Assembly (NCBI GenBank): GCA_002358855.1
Contig: DEPQ01000067.1
Span: 1,106-65,105, forward strand
Origin: Bacteroidales bacterium UBA3388
GTDB lineage: Bacteria > Bacteroidota > Bacteroidia > Bacteroidales > P3
Direction of reading: 5' to 3'
DNA: 64,000 bases
The notes below the pieces were generated by a model. The model saw only the letters and a program-made list of their open reading frames with translations, was not told where the DNA came from and made no database searches. The number at the start of each line of letters is the position of its first letter. The stretch's first letter is position 1. The position numbers and the translations under genes were made by a program. This document shows, piece by piece, positions 3,900 to 38,821 of the stretch.

Positions 3900-5351
3900 A
3901 TGTTTGTAACGAGAAATTTAAACAAGAAGATATTTTTCTATATTTTCGGAATGAATATGTTATTCTTTTCCGTAGTGTTTTTTTTCTCGGGATTGTGTTC
4001 TTATTTCTTTGAAGACGATAATCTGCCATTTATTCTTTCTTTTGTTTTTACTTTTTTTATTGGCTCTTTCTTAGCATATAGAAACAGAAACTATACTTCG
4101 CTGATTTCAAAGAAAGATGGACGACTTTTAATTGGTCTTTTGTGGGTTGTAATGCCTATGTTTGGTGCCTTGCCTTACTTGATTTCTGGATTTTCTTTTA
4201 CAGATTCTTTATTTGAGTCTTATTCTGGTTTTACAACTACGGGTGCGAGTATAATAAAAGACTTATCCGTGATGCCAAAGGGCTTATTGCTTTACAGAAG
4301 TCTAACACAGTGGTTAGGTGGATTAGGCTTTGCGGTTTTTATTATAATGTTTTTGAAAACTCTACGTAATGGTGCGAATAATTTATTCAATGCGGAGTTT
4401 AACTCAATTGAAAAAGAAAAAGACTCTCCTCATATTTTAAATACGGTTTATAAGATTTTTACTATCTATTTTACTCTTACCTTGTTTTGTTTCTTGCTTT
4501 TGTTAAGGGGAGATATGACTTGGTTTGAAGCTCTCTGTCATTCACTTTCCACAATCTCTACGGGAGGTTTTTCGGTTTCTAATGGAAATATAGGAACATA
4601 CGATTCTTATTCGCAATTTATTATAATACTTTTTATGTTTTTGTCGGGAATAAGTTATTTCTTGTTCTTATTTATCTTTAAGGCTAAGTGGAAAAAGTTT
4701 TTTAAAGATGAGCAGTTACGATTCTATGTTTTAATAATTTTTTTCTTTGCTTTAATATTTTTTTTCTATCATTTATTTTTCCAAAACTTTGATTTATTTT
4801 CTGCAATTAAAGTTTCGCTTTTTTATGTTGTTTCAATAGTTTCTTCAACAGGTTTTGACTTGCAAGTAAACGGTCTTGGAATGTTGCCAACCATTATTTT
4901 TATTTTTCTAATGTTTATTGGCGGTTGCTCAGCCTCTTCTTCAACGGGTTTAAAGATTGTTAGAGTAATAGTTTTGTTGCGTTACATTCCTGTAAGTTTG
5001 AAAAGAATTTTTCATCCTCGTGCAATAATTCCTGTTCGCTACAACGGAAAAGCACTAAGAGACGAATCCGTTAGACTAATCTTTGGATTCTTTTTCTTGT
5101 TCTTGCTTTTATTTATTGCAGGTGCTTTTTTATTTTCGATTTTTGGTAATGGATTTATTGCTTCCTTGTCTTTGTCTGCCGCTGCTATTAGTAATATGGG
5201 GCCGATTATGGGTTCAATTGCACAAGGCTTTGAATATGCTGACTTAAACTTGGTTTCAAAATATGTTTTAATTGTTTTGATGCTCATAGGACGTTTGGAA
5301 ATATATGCTTTCTTTGCTTTGTTTTCAAAATCTGTTTGGAGTAGAAATTAA
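3900..5351 (+). CDS. trkH: Trk-type K+ transporter membrane subunit TrkH (copy 1, Phe-rich and divergent)
   Basis: Four pore-loop glycine motifs in order: GFTTTGASII, STISTGGFS, SSTGFD, SSSTGLKIVR. Polytopic membrane protein. Confidence 0.85.
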   Translation: MFVTRNLNKKIFFYIFGMNMLFFSVVFFFSGLCSYFFEDDNLPFILSFVFTFFIGSFLAYRNRNYTSLISKKDGRLLIGLLWVVMPMFGALPYLISGFSFTDSLFESYSGFTTTGASIIKDLSVMPKGLLLYRSLTQWLGGLGFAVFIIMFLKTLRNGANNLFNAEFNSIEKEKDSPHILNTVYKIFTIYFTLTLFCFLLLLRGDMTWFEALCHSLSTISTGGFSVSNGNIGTYDSYSQFIIILFMFLSGISYFLFLFIFKAKWKKFFKDEQLRFYVLIIFFFALIFFFYHLFFQNFDLFSAIKVSLFYVVSIVSSTGFDLQVNGLGMLPTIIFIFLMFIGGCSASSSTGLKIVRVIVLLRYIPVSLKRIFHPRAIIPVRYNGKALRDESVRLIFGFFFLFLLLFIAGAFLFSIFGNGFIASLSLSAAAISNMGPIMGSIAQGFEYADLNLVSKYVLIVLMLIGRLEIYAFFALFSKSVWSRN

Positions 5352-6831: not shown

Positions 6832-9231
6832 TTACTCGTGATAATACACTCTTTTTATGCGTTGAGAGACCGATGTAAATATTTCGTATGGTATTGTGTC
6901 TAAGGTTTTCGCCATTTTTTCTACTGGATTTTCTTCTCCAAAGATAACAACTCTATCACCTACTTTTGCTTCTATGTCGTTTAGGTTTATCATACACATA
7001 TCCATACAAATGTTTCCTATGATTGGGGCATATTTTCCGTTGATATATACGCAAAAGTCTTTGTTTGAAAGATGTCTGTTTAAGCCATCGGCATAGCCTA
7101 TGGGGATTACGCCAATTTTTGTTGTGTCTTTGGCAATGAAAGTTCTCATATAACTTACTGCTTCGCCTTTTTCTATTGTTCTTATTTCGCTTAGGTAACT
7201 TTTTAGTTTGTGTACGTAGCGTAAGTGTTTTTGTGTTTGTGGGTTTACGCCTATTCCGTACATTCCTATGCCTAAACGTATCATGTCATAGTGTGCTTGT
7301 GGAAAACGAATGCTTGCAGCAGAGTTGCAAATGTGTTTTAAAATTTTGTAATCGAAGGCTTGTGTGATTTCTTCGCTTATTTGCTCAAAGGTTTCTATTT
7401 GTTTTTGTGTGAAATCATCAAGGGTTTCATCGTCAGCACAGGCAAGATGAGAGAAAATTGAGGCTATTTTTAGGTTGTTGTGTTGTTTTAAGAATGTAAT
7501 TAGTGGTTTTATGTCTTTTTTCTCAAAGCCTAATCGGTGCATTCCGCTATCTATTTTTATATGTATGCGTAATGGTGTGTTTTTTACCATATCAAGTGTT
7601 GCGAAGTTGTGAACTACGACTTCTATGTCGTGTTTTATCATTTTTTCTAAGGCTTCTTTCTCTGGTGTGACAACGACTATTGGAGTTTTTATGCCGTTTT
7701 TTCTTAGCAAAATGCCTTCATCTGCAAAGGCAACGGTGAAATAGTCTGCTAAGGCAAAGTGTTCTAAGTCTTTTGCAATTTCATACGCTCCGCATCCGTA
7801 ACTTGCGGCTTTTACCATAGCCATTATTTTTGTGTTTTGTTTGAGTTGTGATTTGTAGTATTTGACATTGTCGTTTAAAGCAGAGAGATTGATTTCTAAT
7901 ATGGTTTGATGTGATTGTGCTTCTAAGAGATTGGAAATTCTTTCCATATTAAAACTTCTTGCTCCTTTGATTAGTATGGCTTTTGAGTAGAATTGTTCTA
8001 TGGAAAATTTGTCTGTAAATTCTTCTATGGTGTTGTAGAAGTGTGTTTTTATGGTAAAAATGTTTTTGTGTTTGATGTAGTCTTCTCCTATGGCGTAAAA
8101 TTCGTCTATTCCTTTGTTTGATAGTAGGGAGTTTATTTCTTGAAATGTGTTTTCTTTGTTTTGGTTTTCTGTCATTGAGGATAGTATGGCTATTTTGCTC
8201 AATGATTTGTGATGTTGATTCAAATAATCTAATGCGGCTTCTAATGAGGTTAAATCAAAGCAGTAACTGTCGTTTATTATAATGCCTTCGCCTAAGCCTT
8301 CTTTGAGTTGTAGTCGCATTTCTATGTTTGAAAGGTTATTTATTTGTTGTTTTAGTGTTTTTTCTTCAATGCCTAAGTGTAGTGCTGTGATGTAGGCTAA
8401 GCAAGCGTTCTCTATGCTTGCTTTGTCTTTGAATTTTATGTTTAATTCTTTGCTTAGTTCGGAGGTTTTAAAGGTTTTGAGTTCTATTTTGTGATTTTTG
8501 CACCATTGTTTTACTATATTGTATAGGAAAATATCATCTTTGGGGCAAATTAGTGTATGACAAGATGTGAAAAGTTTTAGTTTTTCTTCTATTTTTTCCT
8601 CTAATGAAGAAAAGTTTATTTGATGTGCCGAACCGATATTGGTAAATATTCCAATTGTCGGTTGGATTATTTCTTGTAAACGATTCATTTCGTTTGGTTT
8701 TGAAATGCCTGCTTCAAATAATCCTAAGTCGTAACTTGAATTTAGTTGCCATAAGGAAAGTGAAACGCCGATTTGTGAATTGTAACTGCGAGGTGAGTAG
8801 CATATTTTTTTGTCTTCTTGTGCTAATTGAATAACCCATTCTTTTATTATGGTCTTTCCGTTTGAGCCTGTAATGGCTACAACTTCTTTTTTGAAGTTTT
8901 CTCGTTTGTATTTGGCAATTTGTTGTAGGGCGTCTAAGGTGTTGTTTACTAAAAGAAAGACTGCGTTTGGAAATTTGTTTGAATCGGGTATTTGTTGGCA
9001 AATAAAAAATCTTATTCCTTTGTTATATAGTTCTTTTATGTATTTATGTCCGTCATTATCTGCGGTTTTAAAAGCGAAAAAGATTGTATTGTCTGTGAAA
9101 TTTAGACGTCTTGAATCGTAAAGCAAATGATGGATTTGTGTTTCTTTTAAATTGATGGTATTAACGAGGTTTTCGCCAATCACACTTTTTGCATTACATA
9201 TTTGAATTATTTGTTCTAAACTCAAAACCAT
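6832..9231 (-). CDS. murF/alr: Bifunctional UDP-N-acetylmuramoyl-tripeptide--D-alanyl-D-alanine ligase (MurF) / alanine racemase (Alr) fusion
   Basis: N-terminal half has the Mur ligase P-loop VAITGSNGKT. C-terminal half has the alanine racemase PLP-lysine motif AMVKAASYGCGA and the Alr C-terminal beta domain. A single uninterrupted 799-aa ORF. Confidence 0.9.
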   Translation of the reverse strand: MVLSLEQIIQICNAKSVIGENLVNTINLKETQIHHLLYDSRRLNFTDNTIFFAFKTADNDGHKYIKELYNKGIRFFICQQIPDSNKFPNAVFLLVNNTLDALQQIAKYKRENFKKEVVAITGSNGKTIIKEWVIQLAQEDKKICYSPRSYNSQIGVSLSLWQLNSSYDLGLFEAGISKPNEMNRLQEIIQPTIGIFTNIGSAHQINFSSLEEKIEEKLKLFTSCHTLICPKDDIFLYNIVKQWCKNHKIELKTFKTSELSKELNIKFKDKASIENACLAYITALHLGIEEKTLKQQINNLSNIEMRLQLKEGLGEGIIINDSYCFDLTSLEAALDYLNQHHKSLSKIAILSSMTENQNKENTFQEINSLLSNKGIDEFYAIGEDYIKHKNIFTIKTHFYNTIEEFTDKFSIEQFYSKAILIKGARSFNMERISNLLEAQSHQTILEINLSALNDNVKYYKSQLKQNTKIMAMVKAASYGCGAYEIAKDLEHFALADYFTVAFADEGILLRKNGIKTPIVVVTPEKEALEKMIKHDIEVVVHNFATLDMVKNTPLRIHIKIDSGMHRLGFEKKDIKPLITFLKQHNNLKIASIFSHLACADDETLDDFTQKQIETFEQISEEITQAFDYKILKHICNSAASIRFPQAHYDMIRLGIGMYGIGVNPQTQKHLRYVHKLKSYLSEIRTIEKGEAVSYMRTFIAKDTTKIGVIPIGYADGLNRHLSNKDFCVYINGKYAPIIGNICMDMCMINLNDIEAKVGDRVVIFGEENPVEKMAKTLDTIPYEIFTSVSQRIKRVYYHE

Positions 9232-9245
9232 AGATTTCTTTTTTG

Positions 9246-9253
9246 CAAAAATA
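9246..9253 (-). promoter_or_regulatory. Bacteroidota -7 box (TATTTTTG) for murF/alr
   Basis: Reverse complement of CAAAAATA. 14 nt upstream of the start at 9231. Confidence 0.4.
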
Positions 9254-9263
9254 AAAAAAAAAC

Positions 9264-9281: not shown

Positions 9282-9641
9282 ATGAAGAAATACATACTTT
9301 TAATATCGGGATTGTTGAGTTTGTTTTTGGGAATATTGGGAATATTTTTACCAGTCTTGCCAACAACTCCTTTTTTGCTTTTGAGTGCGGCGTGTTTTCT
9401 TAAAAGTTCAAAATCTTTGTATGATTGGCTCTTGAATCACAAACGATTAGGAAATTATATTAAAGATTTTATGATTTACAAAGCAATAAGCAAAAAATTA
9501 AAAGTAGTAAGCATAACGACTCTTTGGCTAACTATTTTTCTGTCTGTTTGGGTTGTGAAAATAATTTGGCTGAAATTTTTTTTAATTCTAATAGCTATAG
9601 GGGTAAGTGTGCATATATTATGTTTGAAAACAAAGAAATAA
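9282..9641 (+). CDS. ybaN: DUF454 / YbaN-family small inner-membrane protein
   Basis: 119 aa with hydrophobic helices. N-terminal GILGIFLPVLPTTPFLLLSAACF is typical of the YbaN family. Confidence 0.7.
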   Translation: MKKYILLISGLLSLFLGILGIFLPVLPTTPFLLLSAACFLKSSKSLYDWLLNHKRLGNYIKDFMIYKAISKKLKVVSITTLWLTIFLSVWVVKIIWLKFFLILIAIGVSVHILCLKTKK

Positions 9642-35803: not shown

Positions 35804-35834
35804 CAGCTTTTTTGTTTGTTTTAAAAAAAAATAG

Positions 35835-35842
35835 TAATTTTG
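35835..35842 (+). promoter_or_regulatory. -7 box (TAATTTTG) for dnaX
   Basis: 22 nt upstream of the ATG at 35865. Confidence 0.45.
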
Positions 35843-35864: not shown

Positions 35865-37028
35865 ATGAATAATTTTGTAGTATCTGCAAGAAAATATAGA
35901 CCAAGCGACTTTCATTCTGTCGTAGGTCAAAGTCATATAACAACAACACTTCAAAATGCTATAAAGAATAACCAATTAGCACAAGCCTTTCTTTTTTGTG
36001 GACCACGCGGAGTTGGAAAAACAACTTGTGCTCGTATACTTGCAAAAACTATTAACTGCACAAACCTAACTGAACAATACGAAGCCTGCAACGAATGTGA
36101 GAGTTGCAAATCATTTAACTCATCTGCATCATTTAATATAGTAGAATTAGACGCTGCTTCAAACAATTCGGTAGATGATATAAGAAATCTTACAGATCAA
36201 GTAAAGATTCCTCCACAAAATGGTAAATATAAAGTATATATAATTGATGAGGTACATATGTTAAGCACCTCTGCGTTCAACGCATTCTTAAAAACACTCG
36301 AAGAACCACCTGCTTACGCAAAATTTATCTTGGCAACAACTGAAAAACACAAAATTCCAGCAACAATAATCTCTCGTTGTCAGATTTTTGACTTTAAAAG
36401 AATTAACACAGACGATATTGCAAAACATTTAGAGTATATTGCTCAAAAAGAAAACATTACCTACGATATAGAAGCCTTACACCTAATCGCACAAAAAGCA
36501 GACGGAGGACTAAGAGACGCCTTATCAATGTTTGATCAACTTGTTTCTTTTACATCAGCCAATCTTTCTTACAAAAATATCATAGATAACCTTAATATAT
36601 TAGACTATGATTATTATTTTAAACTAACAGATTATTTCTTAAATGGCAGATTAACCGAAAGCCTGCTTCTTTTTGACACAGTATTAAAGCAAGGTTTTGA
36701 AGGCAGTAGCTTTATTAACGGGTTGTCTGCACACTTGCGTAACTTATTAGTATGTAAAGACGCACAATCTGTTCAACTCTTAGAGGCAAGTCCAAGTTTG
36801 CAATCAAGATACCTTGCACAAGCTTCACAATCTCCGCAAAATTTCATACTCAAAGCCTTAGATTACGCAAATAGTTGTGCATTAGAATACAAAGAATCCT
36901 ATAATAAAAGGTTATGTGTTGAACTTTGTTTGATGAAACTCTCCTATATCACAAATAAAGTAAATACAAATTCTCAACAAACAGCAATTCAAGTTGAGGA
37001 TATTAAAAAAAAAATGACCAACCAATAG
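35865..37028 (+). CDS. dnaX: DNA polymerase III subunit gamma/tau, zero-frame product (clamp-loader core; gamma-like)
   Basis: Walker A CGPRGVGKTTCA, zinc module CNECESC, Walker B IIDEVHMLS, sensor SRCQIFDF. The frame ends at TAG 37026-37028, 12 nt after an A10 run. Confidence 0.9.
   Translation: MNNFVVSARKYRPSDFHSVVGQSHITTTLQNAIKNNQLAQAFLFCGPRGVGKTTCARILAKTINCTNLTEQYEACNECESCKSFNSSASFNIVELDAASNNSVDDIRNLTDQVKIPPQNGKYKVYIIDEVHMLSTSAFNAFLKTLEEPPAYAKFILATTEKHKIPATIISRCQIFDFKRINTDDIAKHLEYIAQKENITYDIEALHLIAQKADGGLRDALSMFDQLVSFTSANLSYKNIIDNLNILDYDYYFKLTDYFLNGRLTESLLLFDTVLKQGFEGSSFINGLSAHLRNLLVCKDAQSVQLLEASPSLQSRYLAQASQSPQNFILKALDYANSCALEYKESYNKRLCVELCLMKLSYITNKVNTNSQQTAIQVEDIKKKMTNQ
37005..37014 (+). 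other. A10 homopolymer inside dnaX: candidate -1 frameshift / transcriptional slippage site, or an assembly indel
   Basis: Ten consecutive A read as AAA AAA AAA A in frame 0. The -1 frame is closed by TAA at 37004-37006 and open from 37007 to 37525. Confidence 0.6.
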
Positions 37029-37528
37029 AAAAACCTAAGGTAGAAACCAATTTAAATGTATATAGTCCCTATTCAATCAAGGCAAACATAGGACTGATAG
37101 AAAAATTCAAACAACAAAACGCCTTAGAAGATCAAAAACAAAAAGAATACAATGTAACCTCGTTTTTAGAGGCTATAAAAATCTATGCAGAAGAATTAAA
37201 AAATTTGGATTCCACCGCATTTCCCGATGCTCACAATCTTTCTTTTATTTTAAATACAGCAGAATTTGCTGTAAAAAGTGATGAATGGGTAGATATTATT
37301 TTATTAAATCATCAAGAAGAAAAAATATTACTTAGCAACAAACAAGCAATTTTGTCGTTTATAGAGAATAGAACACAATGTAAGAAAATAAACTTGAATG
37401 TCAAAGTAAAAGAATACGAACACAAACCAAAACTTTACGAACCGCGAGAAGTATTCAACTATATGAAAGAAAAAAATCCGAATTTAGCAGAATTGGTAAA
37501 AGTTTTGGGCGGAGAAATAAGCTATTAA
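37007..37528 (+). CDS. dnaX: dnaX -1-frame continuation (putative tau-specific C-terminal region; includes track ORF 37205..37528)
   Basis: I translated the -1 frame by hand and found no stop from 37007 to TAA at 37526-37528 (171 codons from 37013). There is no promoter box or credible ATG for an independent gene; the track ORF starts at a TTG. Confidence 0.6.
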   Translation, partial: KKNDQPIEKPKVETNLNVYSPYSIKANIGLIEKFKQQNALEDQKQKEYNVTSFLEAIKIYAEELKNLDSTAFPDAHNLSFILNTAEFAVKSDEWVDIILLNHQEEKILLSNKQAILSFIENRTQCKKINLNVKVKEYEHKPKLYEPREVFNYMKEKNPNLAELVKVLGGEISY

Positions 37529-37546
37529 TATAAAAACAAATAAACT

Positions 37547-38821
37547 ATGGGTGCAACTTTAATATTTTTAGGGATTTTGGTGTTTTCAGCCCACCTTTTT
37601 GCAATGATTTTTAGTAAGAAAAAAATTCCAGACGTATTATTGTTGTTAGGAATAGGCGTTTTGATTGGCCCAGTTTTGAAATTAGTTTCTCCCTCAGACT
37701 TTGGAGCAGTTGGAGGCGTGTTTACAAGCATCACTTTGATAGTAATACTTTTTGAAGGTGGCACAGGAATAAGCATAAACGACCTTAAAAGCTCTTGGAA
37801 ATCAACAGCTATGCTTGCTTTTACAGGATTTGTCGTATCGGCCTTTGTAGTTGCAGGAGTATGTATGAGTTTTGGAATGAGTTTTCTTGATAGCATAACA
37901 CTTGGAGCAATACTTGGAGGTACTTCCTCAGCAGTTGTAATTCCACTTGCACAACATCTTCAATTATCTAATACAACAAAGACCTCTTTAATCCTCGAAT
38001 CTGCAATTACAGATGTGCTTTGTATCGTTTTTGCTTTGGCTTTTATAGACGCAGCACGAATGGGAGCAAATCTTAACGTAGGAAAAATTGCAGGAAACGT
38101 CATTGCATCATTCGTTTTAGCGACTGTACTTGGTTTTGTATCGGCTATGATTTGGGCTTCATTGCTTCAAAAAATCCGTTCTTTAAGAAATTCAATGTTT
38201 CTAACGCCTGCATATCTTTTTATAATCTATGGCTTAGCAGAAGTATTAGGATATAGCGGTGCGATAGCCTCTTTGGCCTTTGGAATCACGATTGCAAATA
38301 TGGAATACTTCAATTTTAAATTTTTAGAGAAGTATCAAAAAGACAAAAACTTAAAACTAAATGACAGTGAAACATCTTTCGTAGGCGAAATAAGTTTTGT
38401 GTTAAAAACATTCTTTTTTGTCTATATCGGAATAAGCATTCCTTTCTCAGATTCAAAGTCTATTCTTATCGGAGGACTGATTACTATCGGATTGTTATTG
38501 AGTAGAATTATAATTGCAAAATATTGCTCACCAAAAGGAGCAAATGTTTTTGATAAAAGCACAATAGGGCTAATGATACCAAAAGGATTAGCAGCCGCAG
38601 TCTTAGCATCTGTTCCCGAACAATTAGGAATGCCATCAGGAAGCGAAATAAAATACATTACTTTCTCGGTAGTATTATTTTCAATCTTGATTTGCTCAAT
38701 AATGATTCTACTCATAGAAAAACAACCTAAGATGAACGTATTTTTTAGATTTGTTTTTCGTTCTCATTTCAAAAGAAAGCCTAAGGATTCTAAACCATTG
38801 GAAACCAATCTGGAAGAATAA
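37547..38821 (+). CDS. Cation:proton antiporter (Na+/H+ exchanger family)
   Basis: About 12 TM helices with CPA-type segments (LLLGIGVLIGP, ILFEGGTGI, ITDVLCIVFALAF). Confidence 0.85.
   Translation: MGATLIFLGILVFSAHLFAMIFSKKKIPDVLLLLGIGVLIGPVLKLVSPSDFGAVGGVFTSITLIVILFEGGTGISINDLKSSWKSTAMLAFTGFVVSAFVVAGVCMSFGMSFLDSITLGAILGGTSSAVVIPLAQHLQLSNTTKTSLILESAITDVLCIVFALAFIDAARMGANLNVGKIAGNVIASFVLATVLGFVSAMIWASLLQKIRSLRNSMFLTPAYLFIIYGLAEVLGYSGAIASLAFGITIANMEYFNFKFLEKYQKDKNLKLNDSETSFVGEISFVLKTFFFVYIGISIPFSDSKSILIGGLITIGLLLSRIIIAKYCSPKGANVFDKSTIGLMIPKGLAAAVLASVPEQLGMPSGSEIKYITFSVVLFSILICSIMILLIEKQPKMNVFFRFVFRSHFKRKPKDSKPLETNLEE

Follow-up and report, generated by a model that had tools for sequence, protein, structure and literature searches.

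We analyzed the dnaX gene of Bacteroidales bacterium UBA3388 in a 64,000-nucleotide (nt) stretch of contig DEPQ01000067.1 (hereafter the window; coordinates are window positions), and found it divided by a run of exactly ten adenines (A10, 37005-37014). This run is probably a programmed recoding site that acts mainly through slippage of RNA polymerase, a reading to which we assign a probability of about 0.7. Tau, which is essential in model bacteria, connects the clamp loader with the replicative polymerases. In the window, the zero frame of dnaX stops shortly after the run, and the tau-specific C-terminal region lies in the -1 frame. Judged from the sequences compared here, this feature is real and conserved across the phylum Bacteroidota, so that tau would have to come from a programmed one-base slip.

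Reading frames at the run and identity of the two parts

The zero frame reads GAT ATT AAA AAA AAA ATG ACC AAC CAA TAG around the run (Table 1). A sequence-only reading of this window had described the ten adenines, a 387-amino acid (aa) zero-frame product, and a -1 frame that is closed by TAA at the beginning of the run and then open to a distant TAA; all of this was confirmed. The dnaX start codon matches that of all homologues, whose N-termini read MNNF or MENF, and the 387-aa protein would be the gamma-like product of unslipped A10 mRNA. Since the -1-frame TAA shuts that frame upstream, the tau frame can be entered only inside the run. The sequence-only reading did not mention the +1-frame TGA that abuts the 3' end of the run. 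Together with the zero-frame TAG four codons past the run and the open -1 frame, this TGA gives each of the three frames a defined fate at the A10. Insertion of one A in the run produces a fused protein of 554 aa with the junction ...EDIKKKNDQPIEKPK...; the sequence-only reading had put its length at about 555 aa.

Both parts of the fusion belong to DnaX. The upstream open reading frame (ORF1) matches TIGR02397 dnaX_nterm (E=7e-134) as well as PF13177, PF22608, and PF12169. Taken by itself, the 171-aa part from the -1 frame matches the Bacteroidota DnaX model NF011531/PRK14971 at positions 493-613 of 614 (E=8e-11) in a profile search, the check that the sequence-only reading had proposed for this segment. 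The fused protein exceeds the curated cut-off of PRK14971 (733.7 versus 685 bits) and aligns over its full length with contiguous DnaX proteins of 552-586 aa (P0033, P0024, P0048, and others). The downstream ORFs of relatives match PF28557, with a C-terminal domain of DUF8439 type. Searched alone, the 171-aa part gave nothing in Pfam at E<=1 and no match in a PDB sequence search.

The apparently intergenic 176 nt also carry coding signal. A conserved SP[YF]SI motif is encoded there before any start codon, and the first possible -1-frame start, the TTG at 37205, is preceded by 63 bridge codons. When the bridge is compared with that of the related locus L083 (89% identical), substitutions number 14, 7, and 26 at -1-frame codon positions 1, 2, and 3 (chi-square 11.8, df 2, p ~0.003), and this third-position excess indicates that the bridge is translated in the -1 frame. 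Gene callers set the start of the downstream ORF at a different site in each relative, and NCBI records of metagenome-assembled genomes (MAGs) label ORF1 gamma/tau and the downstream ORF "hypothetical protein".

Conservation of the run in close relatives and across the phylum

In the assembly collection, 69 blocks contain the identical 387-aa product. All six strain variants, which differ by 2-23 nt over 1664 nt, have A10, as do seven further lineages with 72-89% protein identity, whose DNA was taken from gut metagenomes (pig, human, and others) and from MAGs in NCBI, some of which bear the name Candidatus Onthomorpha. The context NNT-A10-TGA-Y is common to the seven lineages and T-A10-TGA to all eight clade members, and the run is exactly A10 in L081-L090 and L093-L098. 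The linker just 5' of the KKK residues is hypervariable in length and sequence, yet the A10 is kept. In these relatives the zero-frame stop ends 11-20 nt past the run, and the -1 ORF, of 166-175 codons and encoding a DnaX C-terminus, has its boundary at the run in every case. At the protein level, the closest clusters (72-99% identity) are 386-441 aa long and end in ...KKKM[T/I]x1-6; within the 90% cluster to which the window's product belongs, every listed member has 387 aa except for three shorter entries, two of which are named or evidently partial. The orthologue alignment suggested by the sequence-only reading therefore shows relatives that retain both the run and the split.

To place the locus within the phylum, we examined the best 80 of at least 600 tblastn matches to the fused protein, which are species-level Bacteroidota loci mostly from other families. 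The window's own clade is absent from these 80 and was reached through contigs encoding its proteins. At the end of domain III, 65 of the 80 loci have a run of A9-A13, located at codons ~353-389 with one at codon 456; its length is exactly A10 in 56 loci, and A9, A11, A12, and A13 in five, two, one, and one, respectively. The run is found in all three codon phases. Relative to it, the tau C-terminus is in frame 0 (Thermus-like) at 48 loci, in frame -1, as in the window, at 14, and in frame +1 at three. At the 65 run-bearing loci exactly one frame is always open for more than 120 codons into the tau C-terminus, and the two non-tau frames stop at a median of 2 codons (90% within 5), versus a median of 10 at within-gene control positions. 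The Mann-Whitney p-value for this excess of nearby stops (~1e-37) is overstated and the counts are descriptive, as the 80 loci are best matches and related to one another, not a random sample.

Chryseobacterium, Sunxiuqinia, Marinoscillum, Roseivirga, and Chryseolinea are among the -1 loci. Three MAGs make up the +1 group, one each from Paludibacter, Bacteroidaceae, and Flavobacteriales (L033:~4101-4110, L044, and L077; A10 at codon ~357-367); in them tau would need an A9 or A12 transcript. The 48 frame-0 loci look like ordinary contiguous dnaX ORFs with an in-frame run of A9-A11 (exactly A10 in 41; for example L001:4156-4165, L013:4159-4168, and L038:4134-4143) and stops in the other frames 0-14 codons away; these are likely Thermus-type slippage sites that yield gamma. 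Separately, one Bacteroidales MAG (L023:4100-4900) has a dnaX zero frame that closes at 4152 and a +1 frame that encodes the tau C-terminus, with no homopolymer at the junction, an arrangement that could be an assembly error or another kind of shift site.

With a GC content of 32.6% in the window, an A10 is not by itself improbable. The dnaX run is the sole coding run of ten or more A within the 64 kb, and its weight comes from conservation at the same gene boundary, not from rarity.

Table 1. Features of the dnaX locus in the window and stop codons of related loci.
Feature	Position	Strand	Description
dnaX zero-frame ORF	35865..37028	+	ATG start, 387 aa, C-terminus KKKMTNQ followed by stop; clamp-loader domains I-III and short linker
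A10 slippery run, putative recoding site	37005..37014	+	at dnaX codon 381
TAA, -1 frame	37004..37006	+	T and first two A of the run
TGA, +1 frame	37015..37017	+	abuts 3' end of the A10 run
TAG, zero-frame stop	37026..37028	+	12 nt past the A10 run
-1-frame ORF, tau-specific C-terminal region	37007..37528	+	171 codons; linker, SP[YF]SI motif, C-terminal domain; TAA 37526-37528
"Intergenic" bridge	37016..37204	+	-1 frame without ATG/GTG/TTG start; coding constraint in -1 frame
Candidate dnaX promoter TAATTTTG	35835..35842	+	fits -7 consensus TAnnTTTG; 23 nt 5' of dnaX ATG
Predicted nascent-RNA hairpin	36970..37001	+	9-bp stem 36970-36978/36993-37001, 14-nt loop, ends 3 nt 5' of A10
TAG positions, related loci	L011:2788-2790, L030:4099-4101, L040:4102-4104, L219-L221:3599-3601, L222-L224:3629-3631		

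Several other features of the window and its relatives were recorded. A second A10 (9253-9262) is noncoding and lies in the 50-nt spacer between two divergent genes, a murF/alr-like fusion (6832..9231, minus strand) and a small membrane protein (9282..9641, plus strand), both named from their translations. An A9 run at 35823-35831, 34 nt 5' of the dnaX ATG, together with TAATTTTG marks the likely promoter or leader region; TAnnTTTG is the Bacteroidetes -7 promoter consensus. Directly 3' of dnaX is a Na+/H+ exchanger gene (PF00999, window 37547-38821), which has this position in every Bacteroidales relative examined (L081-L090, L219-L224), and the dnaX-antiporter pair is conserved although the genes upstream of dnaX vary among relatives.

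Transcriptional slippage and the alternatives

We propose that the nascent RNA would re-anneal out of register as the polymerase copies the ten-T template, generating a mixed mRNA pool of A10 plus A11, A12, A9, and other lengths. Transcripts with A10 or A13 would encode a gamma-like clamp-loader subunit of 387 or 388 aa ending in KKKMTNQ, and those with A9 or A12 would terminate at the adjoining TGA, with products ending ...DIKKK or ...KKKK. In transcripts with A11, A8, or A14, domains I-III would run on into the 171 codons of the -1 frame, and the product would be the tau-type subunit of 554 aa, the A14-derived form having a four-lysine junction peptide, DIKKKKNDQPIE. Both isoforms would then come from one gene, whose template would specify the short form by default. 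Slippage on runs of nine A or T is efficient in vivo and makes the gamma subunit of Thermus (Atkins 2016, PMC5009743).

The main alternative is programmed -1 ribosomal frameshifting at A_AAA_AAA on unslipped A10 mRNA, which we consider unlikely. A heptamer in the correct phase is present (run positions 3-9, codons AAA AAA), a ribosomal shift would create the same ...KKKNDQ... junction, and the E. coli dnaX gene itself uses -1 frameshifting at A_AAA_AAG. Moreover, the reversed arrangement found in some bacteria has been put in ribosomal frameshifting terms (Atkins 2016, PMC5009743), although, according to the same review, A_AAA_AAA proved a much poorer shift site than A_AAA_AAG in E. coli. The length of the run argues for the polymerase: 7 nt would be enough for a ribosome, yet 56 of the 80 surveyed loci keep a length of 10, approximately that of the RNA-DNA hybrid, and do so in all three phases. 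Codon phase is thus irrelevant, and the same A10 serves both shift directions, with a +1 change required at three loci. Opposite shift directions within one gene family were taken as a criterion for transcriptional realignment by Antonov et al. (2013; PMC3711429).

Elements that could stimulate a ribosomal shift were sought on both sides of the run. Downstream, single-sequence folds of the 80 nt following the run are no more stable than shuffled sequences (z=+1.0 for the window), and RNAalifold found no consensus structure from -40 to +100 around the run in the eight clade members; a 3' stimulatory stem-loop was consequently rejected, in agreement with the sequence-only reading. An Rfam scan of 36700-37400 at E<=10 returned only unrelated families at chance level and did not match the DnaX frameshift element. 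The lack of both a conserved 3' stem-loop and the Rfam element favors transcriptional slippage, the mechanism that the sequence-only reading had also preferred. Upstream, a purine-rich GAG/GGAG stretch occurs in all clade members, with GAGGA 5 nt from the run in the window and conserved GAG-rich codons. These same bases form the 3' arm of a predicted hairpin and a conserved Glu codon. Shine-Dalgarno pairing plays only a small part in translation in Bacteroidota, so a stimulator of that type seems doubtful here. A tRNA scan of the window, which bears on the tRNA-Lys repertoire, found no tRNA genes.

The hairpin lies 5' of the run, whereas the sequence-only reading had examined only the downstream side. 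It has a predicted stability of -8.7 kcal/mol (z=-4.56; none of 200 shuffles was as stable) and a rank of 0.019 among control positions within the gene. The stem is retained in L090, where one base pair shows a compensatory change (C-G to U-A), and is absent from L083. When the best hairpin with its 3' end 0-4 nt 5' of the run was ranked at 73 loci, it came within the top 10% of within-gene controls at 29, against about seven expected (median rank 0.15), while 15 of the 73 have no such hairpin and its register varies among relatives. RNAalifold gave no consensus for 14 Flavobacteriia sequences 5' of the run, where manual inspection found hairpins in differing registers. What we claim is positional enrichment, not a covarying structure, and the hairpin is a lead only, as a candidate modulator of slippage.

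It is very unlikely that the two parts act as separate polypeptides, with the ORF1 core complemented in trans by an independently started C-terminal protein (for example from the TTG at 37205), or that the downstream part is a decaying remnant. Gene callers do annotate a separate downstream ORF, which appears as "hypothetical protein" in the NCBI MAG records mentioned above. The -1 frame, on the other hand, is open from within the run, its 63 codons before any start are constrained and include SP[YF]SI, the called downstream starts are inconsistent among relatives, and the ORF boundary falls at the run in all of them. A search of the plus strand for TAnnTTTG between 36580 and 38746 found no match, and the downstream ORF is thus without such a promoter box, as the sequence-only reading had stated. 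Tau has to hold polymerase and clamp loader together in E. coli Pol III, and this role calls for a covalent linkage of both parts, which speaks against separate polypeptides.

A sequencing or assembly error in the homopolymer, with a true A11 or A8 and a single dnaX ORF, was offered by the sequence-only reading beside recoding or slippage and can be given almost no credence: homopolymers are prone to error and contiguous A11 alleles exist in some assemblies of related lineages (see below), but dozens of independent assemblies, and lineages with as little as 72% protein identity, show A10 with the same frame relations (among them the 69 blocks, the six strain variants, and the seven further lineages), the conserved stops 0-5 codons away in the other two frames would be senseless in a plain ORF, and the same type is present in records named for the described species Sunxiuqinia, Chryseobacterium, Marinoscillum, and Roseivirga (all four labelled MAGs) and in finished genomes analyzed by Antonov et al. 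(2013; PMC3711429). Of the two options in that reading, recoding is the one that the conserved run and frames support. Phase variation of the run in the DNA was also considered as a per-cell mechanism for making tau and rejected, as A11 alleles are a small minority and tau is needed in every cell.

Several points weigh against programmed slippage by RNA polymerase. The argument for slippage at this locus is drawn from conservation, and the survey counts behind it carry the sampling limits given above; the three loci of +1 polarity are single MAG assemblies each. The in-phase A_AAA_AAA within the A10 may also permit a -1 ribosomal shift that yields an identical tau, and both mechanisms may work together. 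Finally, contiguous A11 alleles occur inside two related species-level clusters: P0131 is represented by 17 contigs against 349 for P0135, and P0192 by 11 contigs. The A11 alleles at L091:1380-1390 and L092:1686-1696 give contiguous DnaX proteins of 564 and 585 aa and are few beside hundreds of A10 contigs, and one A13 allele is present among the run-length variants (variant proteins P0131, P0192, and P0016). The A11 contigs (runs ERR5729304 and SRR24653728) could represent real polymorphism, assembly noise, or contigs from RNA libraries. Run length thus varies either in the DNA or through assembly noise, with A10 as the modal state.

A different arrangement was observed in a large Bacteroidales clade whose dnaX has no A-run. 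This clade makes up at least 95 of the top 120 protein clusters, and its products, 365-426 aa long, mostly end in ...LMKLAxxxxNP. In DNA from five lineages of this clade, an in-frame TAG is located at the same boundary of domain III and linker, within the invariant CATAGATTGCWAG (Table 1), and past it the same frame stays open for 189-254 codons and encodes a tau-type C-terminus. A third route to tau may exist here, by programmed UAG readthrough or some different decoding of TAG. A literature search found no paper describing a dnaX TAG variant, and a 14-mer scan of metagenome contigs for its context gave chance matches only, none in dnaX.

Tentatively, the A10, its flanking stops, and the 5' hairpin could together be one tunable slippage module that sets the tau:gamma ratio across the Bacteroidota at an efficiency near one half, with the default isoform flipped repeatedly and A10 restored, and with the UAG replacement in one Bacteroidales clade as a third interchangeable solution; as a whole this extended model is rather doubtful. 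If slippage is the source of tau, its synthesis would hang entirely on a programmed polymerase "error" in one common group of gut Bacteroidales and in many other Bacteroidota. Annotation pipelines call a truncated dnaX and a "hypothetical protein" at such loci, inflating counts of pseudogenes and unknown proteins and hiding an essential product. With one A10 in three polarities and rare A11 alleles within species clusters, the phylum would offer a natural series for how slippage efficiency is set and how default and slipped roles swap.

Comparison with known recoding systems

Judging by its sequence features, the window site belongs to an already described class of two-ORF A10 dnaX genes. Antonov et al. 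(2013; NAR 41:6514, PMC3711429) report two-ORF poly-A dnaX genes with a -1 frameshift (GeneTack cluster COF_239165634) and found 17 two-ORF genes from 12 genera; their Figure S3 has nine of the A10 type, from Chlorobium, Pelodictyon, Prosthecochloris, Flavobacterium johnsoniae, F. psychrophilum, Cytophaga hutchinsonii, Capnocytophaga ochracea, and Coraliomargarita. Transcriptional realignment was proposed there by analogy with Thermus, and the genes were unannotated in RefSeq in 2013. Like these, the window has domains I-III in an ORF1 that ends just past an A10 with a close zero-frame stop, a tau C-terminus in the -1 frame, and a conserved position and motif. The class includes other Bacteroidota, and the nine species of Figure S3 include no Bacteroidales; the window differs from the published examples in its context, T-A10-TGA in phase 0. 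The passages of Antonov et al. covered here do not report the majority of in-frame A10 runs, the +1 polarity, or the upstream hairpin. Two later papers describe tau as the recoded product in a limited number of bacteria (Sharma 2014, PMC4066793; Atkins 2016, PMC5009743). As far as the sections of these three papers covered here extend, they contain no experimental test of the two-ORF type and no Bacteroidales example, and the hairpin, the three-polarity pattern, and the UAG variant were not found in this dnaX literature.

In Thermus thermophilus, dnaX has an A9 at the boundary of domains III and IV that undergoes transcriptional slippage (Larsen et al. 2000, as summarized in PMC5009743 and PMC3711429). 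Both Thermus and the window have an A homopolymer of at least nine at this boundary, with close stops in both non-tau frames. In Thermus, according to these accounts, a single gene yields both isoforms because its mRNA is heterogeneous, with tau encoded by the template and gamma made by slippage, whereas in the window the short form is template-encoded, tau is in the -1 rather than the zero frame, and the essential long form would have to come from slippage. The polarity that the sequence-only reading had recognized as inverted relative to E. coli, with tau in the -1 frame and the short form as default, is therefore inverted relative to Thermus as well.

The E. coli dnaX gene shares with the window the gene, the boundary, and the outcome, in that tau and gamma have a common N-terminus. 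Its -1 programmed ribosomal frameshift uses A_AAA_AAG with an upstream Shine-Dalgarno sequence and a 3' stem-loop, whereas the run in the window is followed by T, which leaves only A_AAA_AAA and no AAG heptamer, the polarity is inverted, and recoding likely takes place at the level of RNA polymerase. For the upstream hairpin, a parallel is the Roseiflexus IS630 element, where a stem-loop 5' of a T5C5 motif stimulates slippage (Penno et al. 2015, as summarized in PMC5009743). In both cases a stem-loop in the nascent RNA, predicted in ours, is directly 5' of the slippage motif. The Roseiflexus T5C5 is, in that summary, inert without its hairpin, whereas the A10 of the window should slip unaided, and its hairpin is neither universal nor in a fixed register.

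Poly(A) transcriptional rescue of frameshifted genes in Buchnera and Blochmannia (cited in PMC5009743) resembles the window in that about ten A are located in a gene with a broken template frame and that polymerase infidelity restores the product. The sequence-only reading had invoked this kind of rescue. We reject it for a decayed gene in the window, where the dnaX A10 is conserved and is the unique coding run. The endosymbiont cases reflect lineage-specific decay in reduced genomes, with frameshifts at poly(A) tracts in many genes, whereas the window site is an ancient cassette conserved across the phylum, with a fixed run length and conserved flanking stops.

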